From an uncultured Flavobacteriales bacterium (GTDB lineage: Bacteria > Bacteroidota > Bacteroidia > AKYH767-A > 2013-40CM-41-45), in NCBI GenBank assembly GCA_964595205.1, contig CAZQOQ010000015.1, positions 281,765-345,764 on the forward strand: a stretch of 64,000 bases of DNA, in the 5' to 3' direction. The position numbers were made by a program, and so were the translations under genes. Positions 2,743 through 44,700 of this stretch are shown here, piece after piece (within the stretch, counting starts at the first letter, position 1; each line of letters opens with the position of its first letter). Below the pieces are notes generated by a model. It was not told the origin of the DNA. It saw only the letters and a program-made list of their open reading frames with translations, and did no database searches.

Positions 2743-3921
2743 TCAGCTTCGAATGCCTCTACGATCGAGGGCCTTTTGGAATCGCCTTGCATTAATCATG
2801 TGTTGATCATAGGTCGATGCAAAAGCATGATACCCGGAAAAATCGTCCTTCGCGCAGAAAAACATATACTTATGAGGAATAAAATTCAATACCGCCGTGA
2901 GCGATGAACGTGTGGGAAGACATATTGGTCCGGGCGGGAGGCCATTATACATATAAGTGTTGTACGGCGAATCGATCTCTTTATAAATGCTTAGGACACG
3001 GGAAATTGAAAAATCACCTAATGCAAACACCAGCGTAGGATCGGCTTCCAGCTTCCAGTCCTTTTTAAGCCTGTTAATGTATACTCCGGCGATTATAGGC
3101 TTTTCATCTTCCTTATTAGATTCCATTTGTACGATCGATGCAAGAACAGAAACCTGTAATGGTGTATAGCCGATCTTCCTGGATTGTTCGAGCCGCTCGG
3201 GTGTCCAGTACCTGTCATATTCTTTTTTCATTCGCTGCAGAAATTTATCAGCCGAGGTATTCCAGTAAAATTCATAGGTGTCCGGGATAAACATGGAAAG
3301 AATATTGGCTGAGTTAAACCCCATTCTTCCAAGGTAATCGTTATCGTTCATGAGATTTATTAAAGCCTGCGACTTCGCCTCAATTTGTTCAGCAATCCTG
3401 GCAGCCAGTTGCTCCTTTGTACGGATGTTGTTGAATGTCACGTTCACAGGAACCTGTTTACCGGCACGGAGCATAGATATCAATTCCTTGTTATTCATCT
3501 TCGGCCTCAACAGGTATTTCCCCGGCTTAACACGCGTATCATATTTCATCTGTCTGGCTGTCCAGCGAAACGACTCTTCATTGATCAGCAATTTCTTTTC
3601 ATCAAGAATTCCCACCACATCGTCAAAGGTGGAGCCGGTAGGAATGTATAAAAACTCCTTTTCATTACCGGCTGCGGCAATATTATCAGTAAAGATCTGC
3701 CGGTAAATGATAATGCCCATCACGGTCACGATGATTCCGAGAACGGCCACTAAAATCCAGGCAAATCTTTTTACGGATTTTAATTTTGACATATCTGACG
3801 AAAATAGATTTGGATTTTCAATAACGCTCTGTCGAGGTTGATTATTTCTCAACAGTTTTTTTGATTTTTTCAATCGAAAACACCAACTGTATAGTCTGTT
3901 CAAAATTAACAATTTGTTCAT
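2743..3921 (-). CDS. mltG: endolytic murein transglycosylase MltG (YceG-like). Probable true start is the ATG at 3792 (MSKLKSVKRFAWIL...)
   Basis: N-terminal TM helix (FAWILVAVLGIIVTVMGIIIY) followed by a YceG-like domain. Typical length ~350 aa if the start is at 3792. Confidence 0.7.
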   Translation of the reverse strand: MNKLLILNRLYSWCFRLKKSKKLLRNNQPRQSVIENPNLFSSDMSKLKSVKRFAWILVAVLGIIVTVMGIIIYRQIFTDNIAAAGNEKEFLYIPTGSTFDDVVGILDEKKLLINEESFRWTARQMKYDTRVKPGKYLLRPKMNNKELISMLRAGKQVPVNVTFNNIRTKEQLAARIAEQIEAKSQALINLMNDNDYLGRMGFNSANILSMFIPDTYEFYWNTSADKFLQRMKKEYDRYWTPERLEQSRKIGYTPLQVSVLASIVQMESNKEDEKPIIAGVYINRLKKDWKLEADPTLVFALGDFSISRVLSIYKEIDSPYNTYMYNGLPPGPICLPTRSSLTAVLNFIPHKYMFFCAKDDFSGYHAFASTYDQHMINARRFQKALDRRGIRS

Positions 3922-3973
3922 TTTACAGTAATGTCATTTTTACACTACCGGCGTACTTTCGAAAGAAAATTGA

Positions 3974-4348
3974 ATGAAAAAGCAAGTAAAAGTACTTGTA
4001 GTTGATGACGAGCCGGATGTGGTGGAAATATTAAGATATAACCTGAAAAAGGAAAATTTCCAGGTATTAACGGCATATAACGGAAGAGACGCGATTGACC
4101 TGGCCAAAAACGACAAGCCTGATCTGATAATCATGGATATCAGGATGCCGGGCATTTCGGGCATAGAAACCTGCCGTGAAATCCGCACTACCCAGTCGCT
4201 TAAGAACATACCGGTTTTATTCCTCACGGCCGATTCTGATGAATATACGACGATGAGTGCATTTGATGCAGGCGCCAATCATTTTATTACAAAACCGATT
4301 CGACCGGTTATTTTGCTTGAAATGATTCATGAATTATTTAACAGATAA
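3974..4348 (+). CDS. stand-alone response-regulator receiver (REC) domain protein, canonical
   Basis: VLVVDDEPD (acidic pair), IIMDIRMPG (phospho-Asp), FLTAD (Thr), ITKPIR (Lys). 124 aa with no output domain; stop codon TAA at 4346-4348. Confidence 0.85.
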   Translation: MKKQVKVLVVDDEPDVVEILRYNLKKENFQVLTAYNGRDAIDLAKNDKPDLIIMDIRMPGISGIETCREIRTTQSLKNIPVLFLTADSDEYTTMSAFDAGANHFITKPIRPVILLEMIHELFNR

Positions 4349-4359
4349 AATCTCAAACT

Positions 4360-5028
4360 ATGTTTTGGTTCATAACCGAAAACCGAAGTGAGTTGGAAGC
4401 TTTAATTGATGAATTCGTGTCAAAGGGTAATCATACTCGTGAATTCACGAATGTCAGTGAAGCTTTGAAGTCATTAAAGGAAGAAATCCCAGAGGGTATT
4501 TTAATCGATGCAGACGGTTCGGAAATGCCTTGTCTCGAATTCTGTCATAAAATTAAGAGCCTCCCGGATTATAAAAAGATCATTCTAATTGTTGTTTCCT
4601 CGAGTAACTCCGAAGCGATCGAAGAAGCCATGTTTGATGCCGGAGCGGATGAATTTGTAACACGACCGATCAGGCACCTTGCACTATATAAACGCATTGC
4701 CGCCCGTCTGAGCGGTTCGAGTGCATCACAAAAAATGCTCTACAACAGGAATGGAAAAGCAGCCCTTCAAATCGACAGAGAGTCATTCACTGTTTATCTG
4801 AATCAAAAGCTTATACCCTTATCAAGGAAGGAATTCGAATTACTTCATTTAATGGCCAGCCATCCGGGAAAGGTCTTTACCCGTGAGGAAATTTTTACCA
4901 AGGTCTGGAACCGCTTGCATGTTTCGAAAGAAAGGACCATTGATGTTCATATTCTAAGGCTCAGAAAGAAAATTGGTGAAGAATTCATAACCACTCAAAA
5001 AGGAATCGGATACAGATTTTGTGCTTAA
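4360..5028 (+). CDS. atypical OmpR/PhoB-family regulator: degenerate receiver + winged-helix Trans_reg_C DNA-binding domain
   Basis: The C-terminus 'LSRKEFELLHLMASHPGKVFTREEIFTKVWN...TIDVHILRLRKKIG...GIGYRF' is an OmpR-type wHTH. The N-terminal half is paralogous to the REC of the upstream ORF but lacks the DD pair (FITENRSE) and has Lys->Arg (VTRPIR), so it is a pseudo-receiver. Confidence 0.75.
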   Translation: MFWFITENRSELEALIDEFVSKGNHTREFTNVSEALKSLKEEIPEGILIDADGSEMPCLEFCHKIKSLPDYKKIILIVVSSSNSEAIEEAMFDAGADEFVTRPIRHLALYKRIAARLSGSSASQKMLYNRNGKAALQIDRESFTVYLNQKLIPLSRKEFELLHLMASHPGKVFTREEIFTKVWNRLHVSKERTIDVHILRLRKKIGEEFITTQKGIGYRFCA

Positions 5029-5136
5029 AATCAATGAGAATTATGAATTCCTGTTCATACAGAATTTACTCTCCGTTTACATTTAACATTAACTTAATAT
5101 TAATCGAACAATCGCTTAACCCCGCCATATTTTCTT

Positions 5137-5154
5137 TGTTGCAAAATTGTAACA
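5137..5154 (+). promoter_or_regulatory. Pho-box-like 7-4-7 direct repeat (TGTTGCA-AAAT-TGTAACA) immediately upstream of the porin start
   Basis: Same architecture and near-identical half-sites as the repeat at 7517-7534 upstream of pstC. Sits 2 nt before the porin ATG, which is unusually close. Confidence 0.3.
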
Positions 5155-5155
5155 A

Positions 5156-6595
5156 ATGAAAATAAAAACTACCTCAATTATTTTGTGCTTATTTAACATT
5201 CTTACTTTTAATTCGATAGCCCAGGAGAATACGGGTGAAGATACGCTTACCTCCCACGTTGCGGGAATCCGGTCAGAACTGGATGTTTTGAAAAGAATCA
5301 AGATAAGCGGATACATGCATCCTGAATACCAGGTTACGGATTCTGCAGGCTCCCAGGGATACGCTGGGGGTAGTTTTGCACCTGGAGTTGACAAAAGGTT
5401 TCAGTTAAGAAGAGCGAGGGTTAAAGTTCAATATGAGTCTCCCGTTAATGATAAGGGTTGGTCAACTTCACTTTACGTTTTCCAGATAGATGCTACACAA
5501 GCAGGGTTTTCAATTAGAGATATGTATATGAAATTCACTGATCCCTGGGTCGGTTGGTTTTCATTGACTGCAGGAAACCATAATCGTCCGTTTGGATTTG
5601 AGATCGGTTATTCTTCCAGCCTCCGCGAATCTCCCGAGCGTGCACGCTTTAATCAGATTTTGATGCCTAATGAGCGAGACATGGGAGCGATGTTAACCAT
5701 ACAAGGACCCAAGATTTCGAATTGGAACTGGTTGAAACTTGAAATGGGTATGTTTAATGGAACCGGCGGACCAAGTGCAAATGGAAACACGAATGATTTT
5801 GATAAGTTCAAGGATTTTATCGGGCACATCGTAGTGAGTAAGTCAACTTTGTCAGAAACAGTTAAATGGGGTGCAGGTGCATCATATTATAATGGCGGAT
5901 ACAGACAGGATGTTGCTGATGACTATGTTTTCGGAACTGATCCAAATGGTGTTAAGGGATTTACAATTGAAAAGAAGAAGGCGGATATAAATACGAATAT
6001 TAACGCTCAGTCGGAAGTTAAAAGAATTTATTATGGAGTCGATGCGCAGGTCAGCTTTGACTGGAAGGCGGGAATCACAACATTACGAGCGGAATATATC
6101 CAGGGAAAACAACCGGGAACATCAGCCAGTTCTGTCAGTCCTATTGCTCTTCCAGCTAAGACTTCAACAACCTATTCTTCTGTTACAACGATAGATTCGA
6201 CAACAGGCTTAGCAAATACTGTTACAACTTCCACTACTACTGTAATTGCAAGTGATATTTATTCAAGAAATTTTAATGGAGCTTATTTCTACTTTGTACA
6301 AAACATTGGTCATTCTCCATGGCAAACTGTTATAAAGTATGACTGGTATGATCCAAACACAGATGTTAAGGGTGATGAGATCGGCAAAAGTGTTTCCTCT
6401 GGTTATAAGGCAACCAATGCAACCGATATTAAATATTCCACCTGGGGTTTTGGTTTATCATATAACTGGGATGCCAATGTAAAACTCACTGCTTATTACG
6501 ACAAAGTAATGAATGAAACATCATCGAATTTGTCAGGTTATACAAATGATGTAATGGATAATGTTTTCACATTACGGGCACAGATCAAATTCTAA
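5156..6595 (+). CDS. outer-membrane beta-barrel porin, probably phosphate-selective porin O/P-like, first gene of the pst cluster
   Basis: Signal peptide (MKIKTTSIILCLFNILTFNSIAQ), alternating amphipathic strands, C-terminal ...LRAQIKF (terminal Phe). Located directly upstream of pstS. Contains a Ser/Thr-rich low-complexity loop. Confidence 0.6.
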   Translation: MKIKTTSIILCLFNILTFNSIAQENTGEDTLTSHVAGIRSELDVLKRIKISGYMHPEYQVTDSAGSQGYAGGSFAPGVDKRFQLRRARVKVQYESPVNDKGWSTSLYVFQIDATQAGFSIRDMYMKFTDPWVGWFSLTAGNHNRPFGFEIGYSSSLRESPERARFNQILMPNERDMGAMLTIQGPKISNWNWLKLEMGMFNGTGGPSANGNTNDFDKFKDFIGHIVVSKSTLSETVKWGAGASYYNGGYRQDVADDYVFGTDPNGVKGFTIEKKKADINTNINAQSEVKRIYYGVDAQVSFDWKAGITTLRAEYIQGKQPGTSASSVSPIALPAKTSTTYSSVTTIDSTTGLANTVTTSTTTVIASDIYSRNFNGAYFYFVQNIGHSPWQTVIKYDWYDPNTDVKGDEIGKSVSSGYKATNATDIKYSTWGFGLSYNWDANVKLTAYYDKVMNETSSNLSGYTNDVMDNVFTLRAQIKF

Positions 6596-6631: not shown

Positions 6632-7447
6632 ATGAAAAAAATAATAGTTTTAGCTGCATTATTTGGTTCGGTATTCATCAGCCAGGCGCAGAAAATAGTA
6701 ATTAAAGGAAGCGATACGGTTCTTCCGCTTTCTCAAAAAGAAGCAGAAATCTATATGAAGAAAAATATGGGTAAAAGCATTACCGTTATCGGCGGAGGCA
6801 GTGGTGTTGGCCTCGCAGCGTTGACGGATAATTCGACGGATATTGCCATGGCTTCACGTAAAATTAAAATGGATGAACGCATGAAAATGCAGGATGCAGG
6901 TCGTGCATTTAAAGAAGTGATCATCGCAAACGATGCATTGTCTGTAATCGTAAATCCCTCAAATAAAGTTTCCAAACTTACCCGCCAGCAGTTGGAGGGA
7001 ATTTTTACGGGAAAGATTAAAAACTGGAAAGAAGTTGGAGGTGATGATATGTTAATTGTCGTCTACTCCCGTGAAACAAGCTCCGGTACCTATGAGTTTT
7101 TCAAGGAGCATGTGATGAACAGGAAAAACTATGCTTCATCTGTGTTAAACATGCCTGCAACGGGTGCGATTATACAATCGGTGAGCCAGACGAAAGGCGC
7201 GATCGGTTATGTCGGACTTGCCTATATGACGAAAGAGGTAAAGGACATAGCTGTTTCATACGATGGAAAGACATTTGTAAATGCTTCAATCGAAGCGGCA
7301 AAAGATAAGACATACCCTGTTGTCCGGCCACTTTACTATTACTATCCTGTTTCAAAGGAGTCGCTGGTGAAACCATATATCGATTTTGTGTTATCGCCTG
7401 AAGGACAAAAGATCGTGGACGAAGTTGGTTACATTTCTCTTAAATAG
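6632..7447 (+). CDS. pstS: phosphate ABC transporter substrate-binding protein PstS
   Basis: Signal peptide plus PBP fold motifs (VIGGGSGVGLAAL, SRETSSGTYEFF). Followed by pstCAB-phoU. Confidence 0.85.
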   Translation: MKKIIVLAALFGSVFISQAQKIVIKGSDTVLPLSQKEAEIYMKKNMGKSITVIGGGSGVGLAALTDNSTDIAMASRKIKMDERMKMQDAGRAFKEVIIANDALSVIVNPSNKVSKLTRQQLEGIFTGKIKNWKEVGGDDMLIVVYSRETSSGTYEFFKEHVMNRKNYASSVLNMPATGAIIQSVSQTKGAIGYVGLAYMTKEVKDIAVSYDGKTFVNASIEAAKDKTYPVVRPLYYYYPVSKESLVKPYIDFVLSPEGQKIVDEVGYISLK

Positions 7448-7516
7448 ATTTCAATGGGTTTAGCAGATAACAGCGGTAGAATTTCTACCGCTGTTTTCCG
7501 GTTATTGATATGATTG

Positions 7517-7534
7517 TGTTACAAAATTGTTACA
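7517..7534 (+). promoter_or_regulatory. Pho-box-like perfect direct repeat TGTTACA-AAAT-TGTTACA upstream of pstCAB-phoU
   Basis: 7-nt half-sites with 4-nt A/T spacer (11-bp periodicity as in PhoB boxes), about 64 bp upstream of the pstC ATG at 7598. Confidence 0.4.
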
Positions 7535-7597
7535 AAAAATTTTTAATTGAAAAATAAGTTAAAGCGTTTTTTTGAAAAACTCATTGAAGGAGTTTTA

Positions 7598-8752
7598 ATG
7601 CTTAGCAGTTCGATTTCTGCTTTTACCGTTTTGCTTATTATTATTTTTCTTTTTCGCGAGGGATTTTCATTGTTTAATACTTCGCCACTCGAAAATCATA
7701 ACACGATTGTTGTGAACAGTGCAAATCCGGTAACAAAATTAAATGCATTACAGATTAAGGATATTTTTGATCAGCATATAACGAACTGGAAAGAAATTGG
7801 CGGGAAGAACGACAGCATTATTCTTTTAACGATAAACGATTTGTCGAACTATTTTTCAGACGAGGAGATCGGGGAGAATTTTGAGTATCTTCCCCGGAAG
7901 CTGGACTCTCTCGTTGCTGCCACTCCCCAGATGCTTGCCGTTTATCCGGAAAAATACCTGGTGAGTTCGCCGCAGGGAAAGATTGTACATGTAAATAAAA
8001 ACAACGTTCCGGATTTTATCCTGGGAAGACAATGGTTTCCTACGGCTGAGCCTGCTGTATTGCTGGGAGTACTGCCGTTGATACTTGGGACGCTGCTTGT
8101 CTCCTTCTTCGCTATTTTATTTGCACTTCCCATTGGACTGGCAACGGCTATTTACATGGCAGAAATTGCGGATGAGCGTTTGAGAAAGATTCTGAAGCCG
8201 GTGATAGAACTGCTTGCGGGAATACCCTCGGTAGTCTATGGCTTTTTCGGCCTCATTGTCATTGTTCCTTTGATTCACGATATATTCAAATTACCTGTTG
8301 GCGAAACGGCTCTGGCCGGAAGCATTGTGCTCGCAGTGATGGCTCTTCCGACCATAATTACGGTTTCGGAAGATGCGATACGTAATACGCCTCGAAGCAT
8401 GAAGGAGGCATCACTGGCTTTAGGGGCGAATCACTGGCAGACAATCAGCCGGGTGATCATCCCCTATTCCATTTCGGGAATATCAGCGGCAGCTATCCTG
8501 GGTATTGGCCGTGCGATTGGTGAGACGATGGCAGTACTTATGGTAACAGGTAATGCGGCTGTGATTCCTCATTCATTGCTGCAACCGGTTCGGACGATTC
8601 CAGCTACGATTGCTGCAGAACTTGGAGAGGCTCCTGCTGGCGGTGTTCATTATAAGGCGTTATTTGCCCTGGGTTGTATACTTTTTATTATAACTATGGC
8701 GATCAATCTCTGGGTTCAGTCGATCAGTAATAAACGCAAAATGAATAGCTGA
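7598..8752 (+). CDS. pstC: phosphate ABC transporter permease PstC (the ORF track starts at a TTG at 7547; an ATG at 7598 preceded by AAGGAG is more likely)
   Basis: ABC permease EAA-type motifs (ALGANHWQT..., multiple TM helices) and position between pstS and pstA. Carries a ~130-aa periplasmic loop insertion with a PstS-like segment. Confidence 0.85.
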   Translation: MLSSSISAFTVLLIIIFLFREGFSLFNTSPLENHNTIVVNSANPVTKLNALQIKDIFDQHITNWKEIGGKNDSIILLTINDLSNYFSDEEIGENFEYLPRKLDSLVAATPQMLAVYPEKYLVSSPQGKIVHVNKNNVPDFILGRQWFPTAEPAVLLGVLPLILGTLLVSFFAILFALPIGLATAIYMAEIADERLRKILKPVIELLAGIPSVVYGFFGLIVIVPLIHDIFKLPVGETALAGSIVLAVMALPTIITVSEDAIRNTPRSMKEASLALGANHWQTISRVIIPYSISGISAAAILGIGRAIGETMAVLMVTGNAAVIPHSLLQPVRTIPATIAAELGEAPAGGVHYKALFALGCILFIITMAINLWVQSISNKRKMNS

Positions 8753-8753
8753 T

Positions 8754-9608
8754 ATGTCGAAGCTGGTAAAAGAAAAAATTGCATTCTGGATATTCAGGCT
8801 TCTGAGCCTGCTTGTGCTGCTCATCTTGTTCTGGATACTGGAATTTATTTTCGTAAGAGGGTGGCATATGCTTAACCTGACGTTCCTCACTGCCATGCCG
8901 GAAGACGGAATGACGAAGGGAGGAATATACCCGGCGATCATTGGAACCATGTGCCTGGTGCTGGGGTCGATGATTGTTGCTTTCCCTCTTGGCGTGATGG
9001 CGGGAATTTACATTCATGAATACGAGCGTGACAGCTGGTACAAGCGATTTATCAAATTGATGACAAATAACCTGGCGGGCATTCCTTCGATCGTATTCGG
9101 GCTTTTTGGAATGGCCCTCTTTGTAAACACAATGGGGTTCGGAGATTCAATCATTGCTGGTTCACTTACGCTTGGATTACTTGCTCTGCCGGTCGTTATC
9201 CGTGTTACGGAAGAAGCCCTGATTGCAATCGACGATTCGTTTCGGCTCGGCAGTTATGCGCTTGGTGCCACCAAACTGCAGACGATCAGAAAGGTGATTT
9301 TACCCATCGCTTATCCGAATATCATTACAGGATTAATTTTATCGGTCGGCAGGGTTTCGGGCGAAACGGCTCCCATCCTCTTTACAGTTGCAGCGTATTT
9401 TTTACCTAAACTTCCTTCGAGTATCTTTGATCAGGTGATGGCGCTCCCCTATCATCTTTATGTAATTTCAACCTCCGGAACAAAAATACAGGAGTCGCGG
9501 GACATGGCTTATGGAACTGCGCTTGTATTGGTGTTGTTTGTATTAATTTTAAATCTGATTGCGAATGCACTGAGGAGATATTTCGGTAAAAAGGTTAAAA
9601 TGAATTAG
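8754..9608 (+). CDS. pstA: phosphate ABC transporter permease PstA
   Basis: 6-TM permease with '[18 protein letters not shown]' EAA loop. Gene order pstC-pstA-pstB. Confidence 0.85.
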
Positions 9609-9613
9609 GTTTT

Positions 9614-10369
9614 ATGAGTAAAATAGAAACGAAAAATGTCCATCTGTATTACGGTGCATTTCATGCGCTGAAAGGCATCAGCCTTACGATGGAACAGAAT
9701 ACGGTTACCGCACTCATCGGTCCCTCGGGATGCGGTAAGTCGACCTACCTGAGATTGTTTAACAGGATGAACGATCTGATCCCCGGAATCCGTATTGAGG
9801 GCGATGTGTTGTTCGATAATAAGGACATTTACAAGTCGAAGAGTTTACGGATTGATGAACTTAGAAAAAAAATCGGAATGGTATTTCAAAAGCCAAATCC
9901 GTTTCCAAAGAGCATATTTGAAAATGTTGCCTACGGTTTGAGAGTGAACGGGCTGAACCATTCGTCTTTCGTGGAAGAGCGGGTTGAGACCTCGTTGAGA
10001 CAGGCAGCATTATGGGAAGAGGTAAAAGATAAATTGAAAAAATCGGCGTTCGAACTTTCGGGCGGACAGCAGCAAAGGCTATGTATCGCGCGCGCGCTGG
10101 CGATTGAGCCATCAGTCATATTAATGGATGAGCCGGCTTCGGCCCTCGATCCGATTTCTACAGCCAAGATCGAAGAACTTATCTATGAATTGAAGAATAA
10201 GTATACAATTATCATAGTCACTCATAATATGCAGCAGGCGGCGAGGGTGAGCGACAAGACAGCTTTCTTTTACCTTGGCGAACTTATTGAATACGACGCA
10301 ACAGATATTATTTTTACGAATCCGACAGAATCAAAAACTCAAAGTTATGTTACGGGCAGGTTCGGATAG
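9614..10369 (+). CDS. pstB: phosphate ABC transporter ATP-binding protein PstB
   Basis: Walker [10 protein letters not shown], signature LSGGQQQRL, Walker [12 protein letters not shown]. PstB-specific N-terminus '[16 protein letters not shown]'. Confidence 0.9.
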
Positions 10370-10445: not shown

Positions 10446-11108
10446 ATGACACATCTCGATATAGAAATTAAGCGGCTGAAAGGGGAAATCCTTGAAATGT
10501 TTAACATCATTCAGCTTCAGATGAAGAAGGCGAATGAGGCGGTTTTATTGATGGATAAGGAACTTGCACGTGAGGTTAATTTCAATGAGAAGCGCGTGAA
10601 CGCACTGGAGTTAAAGATTGACAAGGACTGTGAGAATATTTTTGCATTGTTTAATCCGGTTGCAATCGATCTTCGGTTTGTTTTAGCGGCATTGAAGATC
10701 AACTATAACCTGGAGAGGATCGGAGATATTGCAGATGGCATCAGCAGGTACGTGGTGGATGCAAATAATGCATTTGACAAGGAGCTCATTGCGGTATCGA
10801 ATCTGAATGAAATGTTTGGCATGTGCATACAGATGCTGGATGATGTGAGAAAAGCATTCGATTATGAGGATTCAAAAATTGCGCGTGGAATTTTTCAGAA
10901 AGATGATTTCCTGGATGAGAAGAATGCGCAGGCAAATTCGGTGATAGAAAGCTACATTAAGAAGTCGCCCGACAAGATCGGGCAATCGCTGCAAATTATT
11001 TCCACCATCAGGAAGCTGGAGCGTACCGGAGATCAGATTAAAAATATTGCAGAAGAAATCATTTTTTACATTGAGGCAAAGGTACTGAAGCACGGAACAC
11101 CGAAATGA
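10446..11108 (+). CDS. phoU: phosphate signalling complex protein PhoU
   Basis: Two PhoU repeats with 'ERIGDIADGI' and 'LERTGDQIKNIAEEI' motifs. Directly after pstB. Confidence 0.85.
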   Translation: MTHLDIEIKRLKGEILEMFNIIQLQMKKANEAVLLMDKELAREVNFNEKRVNALELKIDKDCENIFALFNPVAIDLRFVLAALKINYNLERIGDIADGISRYVVDANNAFDKELIAVSNLNEMFGMCIQMLDDVRKAFDYEDSKIARGIFQKDDFLDEKNAQANSVIESYIKKSPDKIGQSLQIISTIRKLERTGDQIKNIAEEIIFYIEAKVLKHGTPK

Positions 11109-12429: not shown

Positions 12430-13098
12430 ATGTTTTTATCTTTCTCAGAAGAAAACTACCTGAAGGCTATCTATAAGTTGAAGGAGTCGGGCATCCACAA
12501 AGTGACAACGAATGGCATTTCATCTGCCGTCTCCACCTCCCCTGCTTCGGTAACCGATATGATTCAGAAGCTGGCCGAAAAGAAGCTGGTGAACTACGAA
12601 CCATACCAGGGAGTATCACTTACGCCTCAGGGAAAAAAATCGGCCATCGGTGTTATCCGGAAGCATCGTTTATGGGAATTGTTCCTGGTGGAGAAACTTG
12701 GATATAGCTGGGATGAGGTGCACGATATTGCAGAACAGCTTGAACATATTCAGTCGGAATCGCTTGTGAAGCGGCTCTATTCTTTTTTGGGTAAGCCTAA
12801 ATGGGATCCGCACGGGGATCCTATTCCGGATGAGAATGGAAATTTTCATTCAAGGAAAAACATCCCGTTGAATGTTGCCAACCTGAATGAGAAGCTCATC
12901 ATCAGCGGTGTGGTCGATCACCGGCCGGATTTTCTTCAATACCTGGATAAGAATGACCTCTCGCTTGGAAAGAAAATAATTATCAGGGAAGTGACAGCAT
13001 ACGATTCATCCATGACCATACAGGTGAACGGATCTAAAATTACAAGACACATCAGTGCCGAAGTGGCAAAAAATATTCTGGTTACTGCAGCCAAATGA
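12430..13098 (+). CDS. mntR: DtxR/MntR-family metal-dependent transcriptional repressor with C-terminal FeoA/SH3-like domain
   Basis: N-terminal wHTH 'EENYLKAIYKL...' plus the DtxR dimerisation/metal-binding region (HRLWELFLVEKLGYSWDEVHDIAEQLEH). Sits upstream of an Nramp transporter. Confidence 0.8.
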   Translation: MFLSFSEENYLKAIYKLKESGIHKVTTNGISSAVSTSPASVTDMIQKLAEKKLVNYEPYQGVSLTPQGKKSAIGVIRKHRLWELFLVEKLGYSWDEVHDIAEQLEHIQSESLVKRLYSFLGKPKWDPHGDPIPDENGNFHSRKNIPLNVANLNEKLIISGVVDHRPDFLQYLDKNDLSLGKKIIIREVTAYDSSMTIQVNGSKITRHISAEVAKNILVTAAK

Positions 13099-13129
13099 AA
13101 TATACGAATATTACAACTTTTTAAATCGA

Positions 13130-15010
13130 ATGAAGCAAAGTGAATTATCACTCCCGGAGGTGAATGCCTCTGTGGATACAACACATAAGAAATCAGGCAT
13201 TAAAAAATTCTTTGCATTTCTTGGTCCGGCCTACCTTGTAAGCGTAGGATATATGGATCCCGGAAACTGGGCTACAGACATTGCCGGCGGAAGTCAGTTT
13301 GGGTATACGCTGATCTGGGTGTTGCTGATGTCAAACATCATGGCCGTTCTCCTGCAGAGTTTTTGTGCAAGGCTGGGAATTGTGAGGGGACGCGATCTCG
13401 CGCAGGCATCGAGGGAATCATATTCGAAGCCTGTGAATATCTCTCTATACATCCTTGCCGAAATTGCCATTGCCGCCTGTGACCTTGCAGAGGTGCTTGG
13501 CATGGCGATCGGACTTCAGTTGTTATTCGGTATTCCTCTGCTGGTTGGAGTTTCCATTACCGTGCTGGATACCTTCCTCCTGCTGTTCCTCATAAACTTT
13601 GGGATACGTAAGATGGAGGCATTCATTTTAAGTATGATTGCAATCATTGGTCTTGCCTTTTTAGCAGAAATGATTTTTGCTCAGCCCGATTTGCATGAAG
13701 TGGTGAAGGGATTTGTACCGTCAATTCCAAATGAGACTGCGTTGTATATTGCAATAGGGATCATCGGCGCCACGGTGATGCCGCATAATCTATATCTTCA
13801 TTCGTCGCTTGTGCAGACGAGAAAGTTCAATCGCACATCGAAGGATATTCGCAAGGCGATCAGGTATAATATCATTGACTCGGTGATTGCACTCAATCTT
13901 GCATTCTTTGTGAATGCGGCGATCCTGGTACTTGCGGCGGCGACATTTTTCAACAAGGGCTTATATGATGTATCCGAAATTCAGGATGCGCATAAATTTC
14001 TTGCGCCTCTGCTTGGGACGGAATGGGCTTCGAAGTTTTTTGCCATTGCATTGATAGCAGCCGGGCAGAGTTCAACGATAACCGGAACTCTTGCCGGACA
14101 GATCGTCATGGAAGGTTATCTGAATTTCCGCATTGCTCCGTGGATACGAAGGCTGATCACCCGGTTGCTTGCCATCATTCCGGCACTGATAGTGATTTAT
14201 TATTTTGGTGAAAAGGCAACAGGGAAACTGCTGATTCTTTCACAGGTGATATTGAGTCTTCAACTGGGCTTTGCTATAATTCCTCTGATACATTTTGTGA
14301 GTGATAAAAACAAGATGAAGGAATTTGTAATCAATAACTATCTGAAAGTGGCGGCGTGGATATTTACGCTGATCATCGTAGGACTGAATGTGAGGCTTAT
14401 CTATGCACAGGTAAGTGAATGGATCAGCACAACTGAGAATCCGATATTCCTCTTGTTCTTTGTGTTGCCATTGATTCTGGCCGCGGGTGTTCTTTTGTTG
14501 TATATTACATTCAAGCCATTATTTTCCAGGGCAGCAAAGTTGTCGCGAGTACCACATGAGATGTATCAGCCGATTAAAAATCTTGAAGTGAATCCTTATA
14601 AGCGGATAGCAGTTGCGCTCGACTTCTCTAAACTAGATGGCGAGAATATAAGCAATGCATTGGCCCAGGGAGGCAAAAAGGCAGAGTACCTGCTGATTCA
14701 TGTAGTCGAGTCGGCGGGAGCATTGGTAATGAAAAATGAAATACGCGATTACGAATTTCATTCCGATCAGAAATATCTGCATGAATATGCGGAACAGTTG
14801 AATGCGTTGGGTTTTAATGTAGGCACTAAGATTGGTTATGGGAATCCTAAAAAAGCGATACCGTTGCTTGTTAAGGAATTCAGGGCAGATTTGCTGATCA
14901 TGGGTGCACATGGTCATAAGGGGTTTAAGGATTTCCTGTTTGGTGCAACGGTTGATGCAGTCAGGCACAGGGTTAAGATTCCCGTTCTTATCGTGAGGAA
15001 AAAGGAATAG
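13130..15010 (+). CDS. mntH: Nramp-family Mn2+/Fe2+ transporter MntH fused to a C-terminal universal stress protein (UspA) domain. Start chosen at the ATG at 13130 (the ORF track gives 13055, overlapping mntR)
   Basis: Nramp motifs 'GPAYLVSVGYMDPGNWATDIAGG', 'MPHNLYLHS' and 11-12 TM helices. The last ~140 aa 'KRIAVALDFS...LLIHVVES...DLLIMGAHGHKGFKDFLFGATVDAVRH...PVLIV' form a UspA fold. Confidence 0.85.
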   Translation: MKQSELSLPEVNASVDTTHKKSGIKKFFAFLGPAYLVSVGYMDPGNWATDIAGGSQFGYTLIWVLLMSNIMAVLLQSFCARLGIVRGRDLAQASRESYSKPVNISLYILAEIAIAACDLAEVLGMAIGLQLLFGIPLLVGVSITVLDTFLLLFLINFGIRKMEAFILSMIAIIGLAFLAEMIFAQPDLHEVVKGFVPSIPNETALYIAIGIIGATVMPHNLYLHSSLVQTRKFNRTSKDIRKAIRYNIIDSVIALNLAFFVNAAILVLAAATFFNKGLYDVSEIQDAHKFLAPLLGTEWASKFFAIALIAAGQSSTITGTLAGQIVMEGYLNFRIAPWIRRLITRLLAIIPALIVIYYFGEKATGKLLILSQVILSLQLGFAIIPLIHFVSDKNKMKEFVINNYLKVAAWIFTLIIVGLNVRLIYAQVSEWISTTENPIFLLFFVLPLILAAGVLLLYITFKPLFSRAAKLSRVPHEMYQPIKNLEVNPYKRIAVALDFSKLDGENISNALAQGGKKAEYLLIHVVESAGALVMKNEIRDYEFHSDQKYLHEYAEQLNALGFNVGTKIGYGNPKKAIPLLVKEFRADLLIMGAHGHKGFKDFLFGATVDAVRHRVKIPVLIVRKKE

Positions 15011-30780: not shown

Positions 30781-32022
30781 ATGATATTAATTGTGAAGGG
30801 TAAAGGACTGATAATCTTTTTTTTGCTGGTGCTGATTGCAGGACTTGAAAAGAGCACATTGGCGCAGGAACATAAAATTCCCCTTAGCAAACCGGAGAAC
30901 CTGGAGATCATGGAAAATATCCGAAGCAGGACAAATGACCTGGTAGGAAAAAACATGAACAGGTTTGCATACGAGAAACTGGTACGATATAACCATACGC
31001 TGGATTCTCTTTACAGGATTGAGAAGGGAGATTCATTGAAGCGAATTGAAGCAATTTATCTTGCAAAGACCGCAGCTTTAAGGTCGCAGCTCGATTCATT
31101 GAACAGGCAGATAAATGAAAATTCAGGCAGGAAAGCAGAACTCGATACAAGGTATTGGGGACTTGTGAAAAAGGCCGTATTGTCATTTGCCTTGTGGCTG
31201 ATCATTATAATTATTTTGCTTCAGATCAGGAAGAGAAAACTGAAGCAGGCGAAGTCGCGGTTCGAGACCACTAAGATTCAATTGGAATCACTTGAAAAAT
31301 CCGCTTCCTATTCCGATGTTCTGGTTGAGCATTTCAAAAATATCCGGGAGCCCATCAGTGGTTTGAGCAAGGAAGTATCCAAAGTCAATGATATAATTTC
31401 AGACAAGGATAAAAACCCGGTCGTCTCTCCGGAATGGGCTGAGACCGTAAAGAAATCAGAGCAGCTGAAAAAGTCTGTTCAACTTGAAGAGAATATTGTT
31501 GAGGATGTAATTGCACAGATTGAGGGACCCGGCGAAGAAAAAGTGAGCACTAACATCAACGATCTGTGTGAGCAGTATGTGGAAATTGCAAGACGAGGTT
31601 TCTGCACCGATGTAGAATTCAATTGTCAGATCACTAAAGATTTTGAAAAACGCCTTCCGGAACTGAAAATCAATCCTGCTGCCATTGGCTCTTTATTATT
31701 GAATATACTGACGAATGCATTGCAGTCGGTAAATGATCAAAACAGTAAGGGACAAAAAGGTTATCAGCCCAAAGTTGCAATCAGTACGCGCATCCTGCCA
31801 AGATTTTTACAGATCAGGATCAGGGACAACGGGACAGGGATGAATGAGCAGATTCTCTCGCAAGCAACGAATGAATTTTTTTCCACAAGGCCATTAAGTG
31901 ATGGCACCGGACTGGGATTATTTTTTGCCAATGGAATCATAAACGAAATGCATAAGGGCGAGATTAAAATAGAAAGTGAACAGGGAGCCAGTACGGATGT
32001 ATATATCAAATTCTTTATTTAA
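30781..32022 (+). CDS. sensor histidine kinase (signal peptide/extracytoplasmic helical domain, TM, coiled coil, HATPase_c)
   Basis: H-box-like 'HFKNIREPISGL', N-box 'LLNILTNALQSV', G1 'IRDNGTGM', G2 'DGTGLGLFFANGI'. TM 'AVLSFALWLIIIIILL'. Confidence 0.75.
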   Translation: MILIVKGKGLIIFFLLVLIAGLEKSTLAQEHKIPLSKPENLEIMENIRSRTNDLVGKNMNRFAYEKLVRYNHTLDSLYRIEKGDSLKRIEAIYLAKTAALRSQLDSLNRQINENSGRKAELDTRYWGLVKKAVLSFALWLIIIIILLQIRKRKLKQAKSRFETTKIQLESLEKSASYSDVLVEHFKNIREPISGLSKEVSKVNDIISDKDKNPVVSPEWAETVKKSEQLKKSVQLEENIVEDVIAQIEGPGEEKVSTNINDLCEQYVEIARRGFCTDVEFNCQITKDFEKRLPELKINPAAIGSLLLNILTNALQSVNDQNSKGQKGYQPKVAISTRILPRFLQIRIRDNGTGMNEQILSQATNEFFSTRPLSDGTGLGLFFANGIINEMHKGEIKIESEQGASTDVYIKFFI

Positions 32023-32807
32023 TGAAAGGAATACTTGCAACAGTCTTTTTCGGGTTCGTTTACTGCATCGCTTTTTCCCAGAGCAACGATGAGTTGATGT
32101 CCATTAACAGAAAGGCAAAGGTGATTTTTGTAAAGCCGGAAACGCTTGATAAATTACTGATCGACCTTCGGAAATTTGAAGACCCCATCAATCACAGCCA
32201 GGATTCATTGATTCTTGATACGTATGATGCGATTGCTACGGGATATATGGCAAACAATCACTTCAAGAGAGCTTATGAAATTTATAACAAGCTGCTGACA
32301 AGAAAAGAAGAGATGCTTTCTGAAGACAGGATTGTTTCTATTAAGGCTGCAAATAATACCTATGAAAGCAGGCAACAGGTAGATGAAAAAAGGGTAATGG
32401 AATTGCAGGACAGCTTAAATACAATTACGAGCGACAACGAGAGCCTGTTAAGCGGTCGAGAGTCTTTTAAGAGAAATTTTTCTTTTCTATTGATTTTTCT
32501 AACCGCTATTTTTGCCGTAATGCTTGTTACCGCGGGCATACAGATGATGAACATACGATCTGCGCTTCAGAAAAACAGGGAAAGGATTAAAAGCATTCAC
32601 AGGGTTTCACTAATAGGAAAATATGGTAATGGCTTAATGGTTTCGCTGACGTCTTCATTAATGAGAATAAGTGAACTGATTAAGGACCTTCAGCAGCAAC
32701 TGAAAAAACATGATCAGGGAATTGCTTCAGTGAAACAGGCTAACCAGTCATTGACAGCGGCAGACAAGTATTTAAAGGAAACAATGATTAAATCAGAATC
32801 AAAATAA
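32022..32807 (+). CDS. kinase-less paralogue of the sensor module of the upstream histidine kinase (signal peptide, ~150-aa extracytoplasmic helical domain, TM, coiled-coil tail)
   Basis: Same architecture up to the TM (NFSFLLIFLTAIFAVMLVTAG) and a coiled-coil region, but the ORF ends before any HisKA/HATPase. ATG overlaps the stop of the kinase. Confidence 0.45.
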   Translation: MKGILATVFFGFVYCIAFSQSNDELMSINRKAKVIFVKPETLDKLLIDLRKFEDPINHSQDSLILDTYDAIATGYMANNHFKRAYEIYNKLLTRKEEMLSEDRIVSIKAANNTYESRQQVDEKRVMELQDSLNTITSDNESLLSGRESFKRNFSFLLIFLTAIFAVMLVTAGIQMMNIRSALQKNRERIKSIHRVSLIGKYGNGLMVSLTSSLMRISELIKDLQQQLKKHDQGIASVKQANQSLTAADKYLKETMIKSESK

Positions 32808-32809
32808 TT

Positions 32810-33448
32810 ATGAGGAAAATTTTAATATGTATGTTACTGACGACGGGTACATTGTTATTTGTTTCCGGAATTGAGACGAACTCACCCGGGGTGCAAACAG
32901 AATATCCGATTCATAAGTCAAAGAGATCATTCATAAAAAAAGCCGGGCGAAAGTACCTGAAGAATCAACCGGGTCAGAGCAACATAGATCCGGTTTCAAA
33001 CAAGGATGCAGAAAATTTAATGCGATCCGGGATTCAAAAGGATTCTTCGGGTGATTATAAGGGCGCGATCATGGATTTCAACAATGCATTGAAACTATAT
33101 CAGAATAGTCCGGAGGCATCTTATTACATCGGGCTAATGAAATTCCAGATGGAAGATTATGCCAATTCTGTTATCGATTTTGACAGGGCTATTTCCGGTG
33201 ATTCGCAGAGTGTCGAATTGTTTTTTGTAAGAGGTAATGCTTATTACGAATTAAAGGAATTTAAAAATGCCATCGGAGATTACACCAGGGCGCTCGCTTT
33301 GAATCCGGAAGATAAGGACGTTTATTACAACCGTGCGCTTGCTAATTTTTATTCAGGCAATACTGATGCAGCCTGTAAGGACATGGAGATGGCGCTGAAG
33401 TACAGGGATACGGATGCGCCTGTGTTTTGGGGGGAAAGATGCAGGTAA
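32810..33448 (+). CDS. tetratricopeptide-repeat (TPR) protein with signal peptide
   Basis: Three or four TPR units (AIMDFNNALKLYQNSPEASYYIGL..., FFVRGNAYYELKEFKNAIGDYTRALALNPED, VYYNRALANFYSGNTDAACKDMEMAL). Confidence 0.7.
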   Translation: MRKILICMLLTTGTLLFVSGIETNSPGVQTEYPIHKSKRSFIKKAGRKYLKNQPGQSNIDPVSNKDAENLMRSGIQKDSSGDYKGAIMDFNNALKLYQNSPEASYYIGLMKFQMEDYANSVIDFDRAISGDSQSVELFFVRGNAYYELKEFKNAIGDYTRALALNPEDKDVYYNRALANFYSGNTDAACKDMEMALKYRDTDAPVFWGERCR

Positions 33449-41387: not shown

Positions 41388-41769
41388 TAAACTTTATTTT
41401 TAGCAGATAGTTACCCGTCCATCCGTAAAATGGCCGGCTAAGATATAATTTTTAGCTTTTTTAAAAGGGATTTTAAGTGTAAAGTATCGCTGAATAAATT
41501 TATTTCTGGCTTCACAATTCCGGTGATGATGCATCCCCGGGAATTTCTTACGTCAGGTTAAAATTTTTTGAATGGGGAGTATGTGCATTATTGGTGTTTT
41601 TTAATATGATTTCATGATTTTTTTGAGACAGATCATAGCATCATTTAATCAATTCTTACAAATGGACCTGATTGCATGAATTACCCCCCTGCCCTCTTGC
41701 TCCGGATATATTTTAGTGTGTTCAGTAATAGCTCTGGTCATCAACAGGAGTTATTCGAAAAACACAAGT

Positions 41770-44700
41770 ATGAAACACTTTATAACAGGGAAATGGATTT
41801 TTGCCATCGTGTTGGTCGCCGGGTTGATAGTTACGGGCAAAACCTTTGCAAGCCATACGATGGGAGCCGATCTCACGTATGAAAACCTGGGTGGCAATAC
41901 CTATAAGATTACAGTTTCTTTTTATCGCGATTGTATTGGAATTCCGGCGCCGGCAAATCCGTTCGTCACCATCAACTCTTCGTCCTGTGGACAGAGTATG
42001 GGTGTTACCTGTTATCCGCGTCCCGGAACAGGACAGGAAGTGACACCGAGCTGTTCAAGTTCGGTTACTACATGTAATGGTGGTTCATTTACCGGAATCC
42101 AGGAATGGATTTATGACGGTATCGTAACACTTCCGGCCCAGTGCACTGACTGGATCTTTGGTTATTCATTGTGTTGCAGGAATGCAGCGATTACAACCAT
42201 TCATAATCCGAGTACAAACACATTCTATATATATGCCACATTAAATAATACGATCAGCCCGCAGAATTCATCACCGACGTTTTCAAACAAGCCGGTGCCG
42301 TTTCTTTGTCTCGGACAGCAGTTTTGCTTTAATCATGGTGCATATGATGCTGATGGAGATTCATTGGTATATTCTCTCATTACTCCGAAACAGACGATTT
42401 CCACGGATGTGAATTACAGACCGGGTTACAGTGCCTCAAACCCGTTGATCTCATCTCCTGCGACATCATTTAATACTTCCACGGGAGATATCTGCCTCAC
42501 ACCGCAGGCCCTCGAAGTAACGGTAATGGCAGTGTTGGTAAGCGAATACAGAAATGGTGTATTGATTGGAAGCGTTGAAAGAGATTTGCAGTTGACGGTG
42601 ATGAATTGTGCAAACAATCTTCCGTCACTCACCGGAATAAACGGCACAAATAATTTCAGCGTGACAGTTTGTGCAAATCAACAGACCTGCTTTGATATAT
42701 TTTCAAACGATCCGGATGGCGGCCAGCAACTGGAAGTTGATTGGAACTATGGAATTGCCGGCGGTAATTTCACCACTTCTTCAGCGTCGCACCCGGTTGG
42801 TACATTCTGCTGGACTCCATCATCCTCCGACATTGGCAATTCGTATACGTTCACGGCAACTGTAACAGATGATGCCTGTCCGTATAACGGAAGCCAGACT
42901 TACGCTTATACCGTGAATGTAATCGGCATGGATGTAGATGCCGGACCAGACCAGGCAATCGCCTGCAGCGACCTGGCAACAATTACCGCGGTGGCGTCTG
43001 GAGGGTCGGGTACATATACTTATTTATGGAATACGGGCTCAACCATGCAATCAATAACAGTTGGAGCCGGAACTTATGTTGTCACCGCGAGTGATGGTAC
43101 CTGTACAGCCACGGACACCGTAGTTATATCGATGCCATTCATACCGGTTGCAGCATTTACGAACAGCGCACCGGATTGCATTAACTCCCCGATCAGTTTT
43201 ACCGATCAATCGACCACGCCGGGAGGAAGTCTCAATTATTGGTTTTGGTTGTTTGATGATGGGGATTCTTCAAATCTTCAGAATCCTGTTCATCAGTTTC
43301 CGGGACCCGGCACATATAACGTTACACTGATTATTGAGAATACACTCGGATGTCGGGACACGGTGGTAAATCCGCTGGTCATACTGGCATACCCTTCGGC
43401 GGATTTTAACTGGGGACTGACCTGTCAGAACATAGGTGTCACATTCACAGACCAGACAGCACCATCGCCTGCATATTGGACATGGTCATTTGGCGATAGT
43501 ACATTTTCAAATCAACAGTATCCGACACACACTTATGCAGACACAGGTACGTATACTGTTACGTTAATTGCCGGGAACAGTATTGGATGTTATGACACGA
43601 TCAGTTACGACATCGTTATACTTCCATTACCGGTTATCAGTGCAAGTGCAGATCAGACTATTTGCGAAGGTGATTCGGTAACTCTCACTGCAACGGGAGG
43701 AATAAATTATTCATGGACGCCGGGAGGTTATTTTTCCCAGACAATTACAATTGCACCGACCGGTACCACGACTTTAATTGTGACAGGAATGGATGGAGTG
43801 GGTTGTTATACAACTGACACAGTTGATGTGATTGTAAAACCATTACCTCTTGTGAATGCCGGTGCGGACCAGGGGATTTGTTCCGGGAATTCTGCAACAC
43901 TTACCGCAACAGGAGCGATTTCTTATACATGGACGCCTGGAGGTTCAATTTCATCTTCCATTTCCGTGAATCCGGCAACCGCTGCCACTTATACGGTAAC
44001 AGGAACCGGAGCCAATGGTTGCACGGCCTCCGATGAAATAAACATTACCGTCAATCCGATGCCGGTAGCCGATGCTGGTCCGGATCTAATTGCCTGCAAT
44101 GCATCAAATACAATTCTTACTGCATCAGGCGGTACCAGTTATTTGTGGCTGCCGGGCGGCATGACAGGTTCTTCCATTACAGTAAACCCCGCGTCTACCC
44201 AGACTTATGAAGTAACCGTAACGGACGGTAATGGTTGTTCGGCCACTGATTCAGTTACGGTGACGATCAATCAGCGACCGACGGTTTCACTGCAATCATT
44301 CTTCCTCTGTGCAGGTTCAACCGCCACACTGGATGCCGGCAATGCGGGTTCAGATTTCTTATGGAGTAATGGGGACACTACGCAGGTAATCCAGATAAAT
44401 TCAGGCGGCGCCTATTCAGTAACAGTTACAAATAGTTTGGGATGTTCATCTACTGCTTCCTGTACTGTTACCTATGCAGCTACGATAACCATTAATCTTG
44501 GCAATGTGGCATTCTGCCAGGGAGACTCCGTATTGTTGGATGCCGGATATTCCGGAATGACCTATGCATGGACACCTGGTGGTGAGACATCCCAGACGAT
44601 ATACATTAAGAACACAGGATCCTATGGCGTAACGGTTACAGATACTTTGGGCTGCAGCGGGTCAATCAATATTTCAGCTGTTGTTAATCCGCTTCCGGTG

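Follow-up and report, generated by a model that had tools for sequence, protein, structure and literature searches.

How is a phosphate-uptake operon controlled when the two genes at its head encode a receiver without an output domain and a DNA-binding protein with a degenerate receiver, and no sensor kinase accompanies them? The question is raised by a stretch of 64,000 nucleotides (nt) from an uncultured Flavobacteriales bacterium (contig CAZQOQ010000015.1, positions 281,765 to 345,764; hereafter the window), whose gene content is Bacteroidota-like, with SusC/D genes and type IX secretion tails. Two open reading frames (ORFs) on the same strand, in different frames and 11 nt apart, encode a stand-alone receiver of 124 residues and an OmpR/PhoB-family regulator of 222 residues. 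ORFs and profile matches bear out the order given in an initial annotation of this DNA, which placed the pair directly ahead of a porin gene (here termed a secreted-protein gene), pstSCAB and phoU (Table 1). Here, we describe the pair, its ancestry, its distribution and its putative operators, and we propose, tentatively and with less than even confidence, that it is a subfunctionalised PhoB in which one protein takes the phospho-input, the other binds DNA, and the two are coupled.

The first protein is matched by Response_reg over its full length (Pfam E=1.9e-33; profile positions 1-110 of 111, residues 7-118), and the Pfam scan found no output domain in it. Its catalytic residues D11, D12, D55, T85 and K107 are intact, so that profile and alignment agree with the initial annotation, which had called it a complete receiver with all phosphorylation residues and no output. 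The five residues are invariant in 21 diverse members of a family that runs to more than 120 clusters (63-100% identity) and that is better conserved than either half of the neighbouring regulator. With a receiver as its only domain and all five catalytic residues in place, the protein qualifies as a single-domain response regulator, and it is predicted from these residues to be a fully competent phospho-accepting domain.

The 222-residue protein has the receiver fold and the Trans_reg_C winged helix that define the OmpR/PhoB family. The profile searches that had been suggested as a check place a receiver in both ORFs and a winged helix in the second alone (Trans_reg_C E=1.6e-23, 83 bits, residues 151-220); Response_reg matches this protein weakly, at 36.9 bits against a cut-off of 30.2 and beginning at profile position 13. 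An AlphaFold2 (AF2) model with a predicted local distance difference test score (pLDDT) of 87.7 shows a (beta-alpha)5 fold over residues 1-119 (E2-5...H106-119), a disordered linker and a winged helix. The domains are accordingly a pseudo-receiver at 1-119 (nt 4360-4716), the linker, and a PhoB-type winged helix at about 133-222 (nt 4756-5025). The top Foldseek matches of the model are full-length OmpR/PhoB regulators, including the atypical CosR, GlnR, HP1043 and RitR.

We aligned the protein with E. coli PhoB and canonical Bacteroidia PhoB-like proteins. E9/D10 of PhoB are replaced by T/E, D53 is kept as D50, T83 is replaced by S and K105 by R, giving the signature TEDSR in place of the complete phosphorylation quintet (DD, D, T/S, K); the question whether this second receiver keeps all catalytic residues on proper alignment is thereby answered in the negative. 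Since any one missing residue of the five makes a pseudo-receiver (PMC12632262), the domain is one; it does not belong to the aspartate-less receiver (ALR) subclass, because D50 aligns with PhoB D53. The initial annotation had both the Mg-binding DD pair and the conserved Lys lost. The first acidic residue is indeed gone and Lys is Arg here, but Glu preserves one acidic residue, about 75% of the family have Lys, and the retained phospho-acceptor Asp and the Ser had gone unremarked. The 120 best homologues of the protein split cleanly into 57 canonical members (DDDTK) and about 60 of the type found in the window. Throughout these ~60 the first acidic residue is never present (S/G/T/A/C/N instead), and Ser stands at the Thr position apart from a few cases of G or A. 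About 65% have D or E at the second acidic position (otherwise N/Q/H/K/P/S/G), and the Lys, where lost, is R/M/F/S. The phospho-acceptor Asp is kept in 58 of 60, being lost only in the proteins P0044 and P0017.

Beyond the active site, the two proteins divide the features of PhoB between them. Reading from the alignment, the alpha1 segment of the stand-alone receiver agrees with canonical PhoB at 10 of 17 positions and that of the pseudo-receiver at 2 of 17; in the work of Skerker and Capra this segment is said to carry the kinase-specificity residues. The alpha4-beta5-alpha5 face shows the converse: D100, D/E101 and R115 are kept in the pseudo-receiver, and N/D/S, an invariant His and Met stand at these positions in the stand-alone receiver. 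Judged by these residues, each protein appears to keep what the other lost: phospho-chemistry and the alpha1 helix on one, DNA-binding and dimer-face residues on the other.

Both halves of this arrangement lead back to PhoB. The stand-alone receiver is 43-50% identical to canonical Bacteroidia PhoB-like receivers and 29-31% to other OmpR-family receivers, and the winged helix of the regulator is 54-56% identical to canonical Bacteroidia PhoB-like proteins, compared with 35% to E. coli PhoB and 28% to the other regulator of the window (62493-63188). PhoB models are the best or near-best NCBIfam matches of both window proteins, which nonetheless miss the equivalog cut-offs of TIGR02154 and NF053854 (222-residue protein, 113.7 versus 296.2 and 117.3 versus 270; receiver, 108.7 versus 296.2). 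The canonical proteins used for comparison have PhoB models as their best matches, and the cluster in which they lie (TonB-dependent receptor, beta-helix lipoprotein, MauG-like gene, kinase, GT28) corresponds to the Pi-induced phoBR cluster of Flavobacterium johnsoniae (PMC8115612). In neighbour-joining trees, which carry no support values, all stand-alone receivers form one clade, sister to the canonical Bacteroidia PhoB receivers; the pseudo-receiver falls near the PhoB group on a long branch, and the three kinds of winged helix lie in one Bacteroidia PhoB group. Evolution of the pseudo-receiver half is roughly twice as rapid as that of the winged helix (48% versus 78% identity in P0015). 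On this sequence evidence we take both genes to be descendants of a Bacteroidota PhoB. The peptide strings quoted for the two receivers in the initial annotation are both present in the translations, but calling these receivers clearly paralogous overstated the case: they share 22% identity, which is within the range of either one to unrelated OmpR-family receivers (20-26%).

The pair is widely conserved. When one genome per species was scanned, the receiver family turned up in about 38 metagenome-assembled genomes (MAGs), all of uncultured Bacteroidota and including the complete genome of Ca. Pollutiaquabacter aromativorans, which belongs to a candidate order of Bacteroidia; receiver identity in this set is 54-79%, and the next matches drop sharply to 45%. 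The two ORFs are separate and adjacent in at least 24 of these ~38 species-level genomes, which come from one uncultured Bacteroidia lineage, and the regulator is absent beside the receiver in 13. Gaps between the genes range from -11 to +28 nt, six of them being 4-nt overlaps, and we predict that the two are co-transcribed and, in several species, translationally coupled. Across independent assemblies, some of which hold the exact 222-residue protein, the ORFs recur at 48-100% (regulator) and 54-100% (receiver) identity. Orthologous loci had been named as the place to look for a single intact ORF or a single phoB with phoR; the relatives carry two ORFs and no linked kinase.

Relatives at 59% and 52% identity keep the whole neighbourhood, from AIM24, PGM and YceG through the receiver, regulator, 479-residue secreted protein, pstSCAB and phoU to DHODH, MntR-like and Nramp genes. 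Three layouts recur: receiver, regulator, 479-residue protein gene and pst (layout A); the same with an inserted extra pstS, a type-IX-secreted protein and a TonB-dependent receptor (layout B); and the receiver followed directly by the 479-residue protein gene and pst, without the regulator (layout C). A PGM tree makes the adjacent regulator ancestral and has its absence arise at least three times, by losses or relocations. Each gene of the pair encodes a complete receiver fold, so the two together hold three domains rather than two, which argues against an artefact or a decaying single phoB. As the initial annotation proposed, this is a non-canonical Pho-type pair; it is conserved and no pseudogene. 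The term fission used there is too simple as history: the receiver family is older than the decay of its partner's receiver, and it also occurs beside canonical PhoB in one lineage and a bare DNA-binding domain in another.

Three loci depart in detail. In a long-read assembly the regulator gene is split into two ORFs (L038:10371-11066), and in another locus the pst genes are fragmented (L027:12899-15729); both are probably long-read or assembly frameshifts and not biology. At L094:12428-14475, in a close relative whose regulator is 64% identical, a glycosyltransferase gene follows pstB at the place where phoU is expected.

No kinase gene lies within about 10 kb of the pair in the ~38 genome loci or in further metagenome loci, as judged by phmmer with two kinase queries and by H-box/G1/G2 motif scans of all locus ORFs. 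Pfam scans of all large window ORFs likewise agree with the earlier statement that the 64 kb hold no PhoR-like kinase, so that the PhoR partner normally encoded with PhoB is missing at both scales. The sole HATPase_c protein of the window (30781-32022) reaches 30 bits on the PhoR model, whose cut-off is 334, and has no clear H-box. A second OmpR-family regulator (62493-63188, 231 residues) is canonical, with all catalytic residues and no kinase beside it, and is not PhoB-like, given the low identity of its DNA-binding domain noted above. As an observation in its own right, the HATPase_c protein is a 413-residue membrane protein whose stop codon overlaps the start of a 261-residue, family-less membrane protein, followed by a TPR protein; this group (30781-33448) may be an atypical sensor module.

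Two arrays of four 11-bp-phased half-sites accompany the genes, one upstream of the receiver gene and one upstream of the 479-residue protein gene. The first is found in most orthologous loci as TTAACAn-TTCACnT-nTAATnn-TTyACAy, about 70-80 nt before the receiver ATG, and we regard it as a putative Pho-box-like operator array, implying that the system may regulate itself. The core of the second, TTAACAT-n4-TTAAyAT, stands about 73-78 nt before the ATG of the 479-residue protein gene across relatives, including those that lack the regulator. Because TTnACAT arrays persist in these regulator-less genomes, a PhoB-type DNA binder must be encoded elsewhere there. Searched as a four-half-site TTNACA pattern, the motif gave 134 matches in 568 kb of clade loci against 22-29 in shuffled sequence; 34 lie upstream of the receiver gene and 23 upstream of the 479-residue protein gene (57 together), and many of the remainder upstream of the layout B secreted-protein and TonB-receptor genes, the matches being concentrated at the receiver gene, the pst cluster and neighbouring phosphorus-acquisition genes. 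Phased arrays also stand ahead of the pst clusters in L180 (17/20) and L120 (18/20) and at the solo regulator of L007 (16/20). The significance of these operators comes from conservation across species and enrichment across the clade; an exact 18-mer search of the window gave two overlapping matches where 3.75 were expected, which is not significant.

A TAnnTTTG-like element follows each of the two arrays. TAnnTTTG is the Bacteroidetes -7 promoter consensus, and the element before the receiver gene, TACTTTCG, which appears at the same place in relatives as TACTTTCG, TAATTTTG, TATTTTCG or TACTTTTG, is probably such a -7 element. The two repeats singled out in the initial annotation as Pho-box-like fared differently. 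The one at 5137-5154 is absent at that position in all compared loci. The one at 7517-7534 is conserved, scoring 11-14 of 14 in eight of ten regulator-bearing loci, and its equivalent scores 8-10 of 14, the background level, in all 11 regulator-less loci; this hints that the regulator may bind the repeat upstream of pstC, in a comparison that is partly confounded by phylogeny. Between pstS and pstC lies a hairpin whose stem, AACAGCGG...CCGCTGTT, is kept in many relatives even without a downstream repeat of the 7517-7534 type, and which is probably an attenuator giving excess PstS.

Table 1. Coordinates of the receiver-regulator pair, the pst cluster and associated sequence elements in the window.
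Feature	Position	Strand	Basis or remark
Stand-alone PhoB-type receiver, REC-only, 124 residues	3974..4348	+	Pfam Response_reg
OmpR/PhoB-family atypical regulator, 222 residues	4360..5028	+	Pfam, alignment, AF2, Foldseek
Secreted protein, 479 residues, first gene of pst cluster	5156..6595	+	ORF; synteny
pstS, phosphate-binding protein	6632..7447	+	TIGR02136, 250.6 bits vs cut-off 206.6
pstC	7547-8752	+	ORF; Pfam families of identical genes on L001
pstA	8754-9608	+	ORF; Pfam families of identical genes on L001
pstB	9614-10369	+	ORF; Pfam families of identical genes on L001
phoU	10446-11108	+	ORF; PhoU Pfam E=2.3e-35
Four 11-bp-phased half-sites, TTAACAA tttg TTCATTT taca GTAATGT catt TTTACAC	3906..3945	+	Upstream of receiver gene; 15/20 on phased TTNACA pattern
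Candidate Bacteroidota -7 element, TACTTTCG	3954..3961	+	12 nt before receiver ATG
Four 11-bp-phased half-sites, TTAACAT taac TTAATAT taat CGAACAA tcgc TTAACCC	5083..5122	+	Upstream of 479-residue protein gene/pst; 16/20
Repeat of the initial annotation, TGTTGCAaaatTGTAACA	5137..5154	+	Resembles pstC-upstream repeat; specific to this genome
Hairpin ACAGCGGTAG-aattt-CTACCGCTGT, then TTTT	7470..7494	+	After pstS; read from sequence
Direct repeat TGTTACA aaat TGTTACA	7517..7534	+	13 nt before pstC start; scores 14/14

The receiver and the DNA-binding domain also occur in other combinations. In a metagenome scan, L118 (629-2408) and L119 (3833-5696) encode a canonical PhoB-type regulator, PhoU and the stand-alone receiver. 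L120 has pstS, a bare PhoB-type winged helix of 98 residues (1195-1491), the receiver with a 4-nt overlap, and pstC; L177 and L178 have a 459-residue protein gene, pstS, winged helix (L177:8001-8378), receiver, pstCAB and phoU; and L180 and L181 repeat this order without the receiver (winged helix L180:8001-8309). In L120, L177 and L178, whose bare winged helices measure 98-125 residues, a 4-nt overlap couples the receiver gene to that of the winged helix. The bare PhoB-type winged helices form a family of 52 clusters (P0241-P0292) in Bacteroidota/Bacteroidia, 88-125 residues long and with Trans_reg_C only. Receiver and regulator are found together away from pst at the P0044 locus and in L091-L093, and L007 (6335-10702) has a lone pseudo-receiver regulator, P0039, 44% identical and divergent from ppk1-ppx. 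At L179:7653-9392 a bare winged-helix gene lies between an ArsR-type helix-turn-helix gene and genes for an LMWPc (ArsC-like) protein and an MIP channel, a context that is arsenic-resistance-like and not pst.

In the reading that we favour, an unlinked PhoR-type kinase would phosphorylate the stand-alone receiver under phosphate limitation. The 222-residue protein would bind the phased repeats as a dimer or oligomer independent of phosphorylation, in the manner of GlnR, ChxR and HP1043, and the receiver's phosphorylation state would pass to it by direct contact, the receiver docking on the pseudo-receiver. One PhoB function would thus be spread over two polypeptides in a system that regulates its own expression. 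This reading draws on the conservation of two separate ORFs, their complementary decay, their common PhoB origin, their joint occurrence away from pst, the coupling of the receiver family to bare winged helices inside pst operons, the phased operators together with the pstC-upstream repeat that co-varies with the regulator gene, and the confident receiver fold of the pseudo-receiver. Earlier work lends the coupling indirect support: as summarised in PMC4415409, Ellison and McCleary found that the isolated PhoB effector domain binds DNA constitutively and that the unphosphorylated receiver silences it; heterodimers of a receiver with a pseudo-receiver have been reported for CmrR/CmrT and BldM/WhiI; and pseudo-receiver domains frequently form constitutive dimers or serve as partners in heterodimers (PMC12632262, PMC12548384).

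Several observations weigh against this proposal. Thirteen species have the receiver at the pst operon and no adjacent regulator gene, and the mean column entropy of the receiver is 0.95 without and 0.91 with an adjacent regulator, revealing no relaxed or switched surface; as the receiver is not relaxed in the regulator-less genomes, this comparison gives no support for an exclusive interaction. On its alpha4-beta5-alpha5 face, which is not obviously complementary, the receiver lacks the residues that a canonical OmpR-type dimer with the pseudo-receiver would be expected to use for contact. Because the receiver coexists with canonical PhoB and PhoU in L118 and L119, its role there does not require a dead partner, and since the pseudo-receiver keeps Asp and Ser and usually Lys, it could be phosphorylated directly. 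All organisms carrying the pair are uncultured, and the genes are known from sequence alone.

A broader proposal, which we regard as possible but doubtful, is that several Bacteroidia lineages have dismantled PhoB, so that a dedicated PhoB-type receiver, always encoded with pst or phoU, is the phosphorylated module that controls in trans whichever PhoB-type binder is present, be it a canonical PhoB, a winged helix with a pseudo-receiver or a winged helix on its own, and that it may read Pst/PhoU status without a linked PhoR. If this were true, these loci would offer a natural series for the origin of pseudo-receivers and for regulation by a paralogous live receiver.

The alternative that survives best, although we think it unlikely, is that the receiver is a Pho-induced feedback element, a phosphate sink or kinase competitor in a PhoR-PhoB pathway encoded elsewhere, and that the 222-residue protein acts independently, being constitutive or controlled by its level. 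Such a role would suit a receiver gene that has its own Pho-box-like array and whose product has a PhoB-like alpha1 helix with which it could dock on PhoR. It would also suit the layout C species, 13 in all, where the receiver is unchanged and the operator arrays are kept in the absence of an adjacent regulator, and the loci where the receiver stands beside canonical PhoB and PhoU; there are documented cases of single-domain receivers that serve as sinks, or that inhibit kinases within feedback loops (PMC9430884, PMC5964349). However, operons whose sole local binder has a pseudo-receiver or is a bare winged helix (L177, L120) contain no local phospho-acceptor, and because a bare winged helix has no receiver of its own, a sink would have nothing in the operon to compete with. 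Genes with unrelated functions would not be expected to lie so close together, often overlapping, or to move away from pst as a pair, and the decay of the phospho-site in the partner, observed here solely in lineages that have this receiver, would stay unexplained.

Still less probable is a reading in which the retained Asp of the 222-residue protein receives phosphate from an unlinked kinase, a small-molecule donor or a relay through the stand-alone receiver, which would make the protein an ordinary PhoB in all but its low efficiency. The near-universal Asp, the Ser in most members, the frequent Lys and second acidic residue (58/60, ~75% and ~65% for Asp, Lys and D/E), and the preserved alpha4-beta5-alpha5 residues that are used after phosphorylation all speak for this. 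Yet no member has the first acidic residue, about one third have a non-acidic residue at the second position and about one quarter have replaced the Lys, a variability that indicates relaxed selection on catalysis and makes Asp phosphorylation unlikely. The alpha1 helix of the pseudo-receiver is also unrelated to that of PhoB, the receiver half has changed at about double the rate of the DNA-binding half, and GlnR, which is not phosphorylated according to work cited in PMC12632262, retains its Asp as well. Finally, a sequencing or assembly artefact, or a single phoB decaying into a pseudogene, might be suggested by adjacent same-strand ORFs in different frames and by the split second gene of L038, but is ruled out for practical purposes by the recurrence of the same two intact ORFs in dozens of independent assemblies.

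How, then, does the preferred reading of a divided PhoB compare with described systems? The components are of known kinds, a single-domain receiver and an atypical OmpR/PhoB-family regulator with a pseudo-receiver. PhoB/PhoR itself (F. johnsoniae Fjoh_0544/0543, PMC8115612; E. coli PhoB) has much in common with the pair: both halves are most similar to PhoB models and to canonical Bacteroidia PhoB, the recognition helix RTIDVHILRLRK of the regulator is close to that of PhoB (RTVDVHIRRLRK), and the predicted targets are 7-bp direct repeats with 11-bp spacing ahead of the pst genes and in the regulator's own promoter. The window differs from it in that receiver and DNA-binding functions are on two polypeptides, the receiver of the binder is a pseudo-receiver, no PhoR is linked, and the PhoB cut-offs are missed widely.

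The closest described system is CmrRST of Clostridioides difficile, with canonical OmpR-family CmrR, pseudo-receiver OmpR-family CmrT and kinase CmrS, in which CmrR/CmrT heterodimers have been detected and autoregulation via a direct repeat has been reported (PMC12548384). Both systems put a competent receiver protein and a pseudo-receiver OmpR-family protein in one operon, but both Cmr regulators have DNA-binding domains and their kinase is in the operon, whereas here the partner is receiver-only and no kinase is linked, so that the three-gene set of kinase, canonical DNA-binding regulator and pseudo-receiver regulator is incomplete. GlnR of actinomycetes, ChxR of Chlamydia, HP1043 of Helicobacter and CosR of Campylobacter, all among the Foldseek matches of the 222-residue model, share a degenerate receiver on a conserved winged helix, and GlnR also shares the retention of Asp with loss of other active-site residues. 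These are orphans, however, without a dedicated co-transcribed live receiver, and at 21-26% identity there is no sequence-level orthology.

BldM-WhiI of Streptomyces (PMC4125116) is a precedent in which an atypical regulator functions solely when it forms a heterodimer with another protein that contains a receiver, although these are NarL/FixJ-family proteins, both partners bind DNA and the genes are not co-operonic. The 124-residue protein resembles CheY, DivK, Spo0F and MrrA in having no output domain and all catalytic residues, and departs from them as an offshoot of the PhoB receiver in pst/phoU operons beside PhoB-type DNA binders. The literature searches yielded conceptual relatives and, in line with the initial annotation, no description of a PhoB-derived pair of a receiver-only protein with a pseudo-receiver or bare winged-helix protein in pst operons, although a negative outcome of these searches proves nothing.

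Around the pair, the gene upstream of the receiver is a divergent YceG/MltG gene, and the 479-residue protein downstream has a signal peptide and a C-terminal Phe and is syntenic across nearly all loci. It had been annotated as a porin and matched no Pfam or NCBIfam family even at E=10; we presume that it is an outer-membrane channel. Adjoining the pst cluster, an MntR/DtxR-like repressor gene overlaps the start of a 651-residue Nramp-universal-stress-protein fusion (12430-15010), an arrangement kept in relatives. Farther along the window are a 2586-residue protein (41716-49476) that combines 16 PKD repeats with a CHU_C signal for type IX secretion and a 901-residue ORF with two D-Ala-D-Ala ligase N-terminal domains and several C-terminal matches (52651-55356). 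The latter looks like a tandem-duplicated Ddl fusion, and a PASTA-domain protein comes after it.

What turns bacterial pseudo-receivers on and off is recognised as an unanswered question (PMC12632262), and this locus offers a testable candidate mechanism for it: a transcription factor with a pseudo-receiver, predicted to be co-transcribed with a live receiver that shares its ancestry. The sister architectures, canonical PhoB with PhoU and the receiver, or a bare winged helix with the receiver, can be used as natural controls, and because the proteins are small and the operators defined, in vitro tests are feasible even though the organisms are uncultured. For the lineage itself, a widespread one of freshwater, soil and wastewater Bacteroidota, the textbook PhoR-PhoB arrangement fails at the pst locus, and its absence there matters for the prediction of phosphate-starvation regulons from metagenomes.

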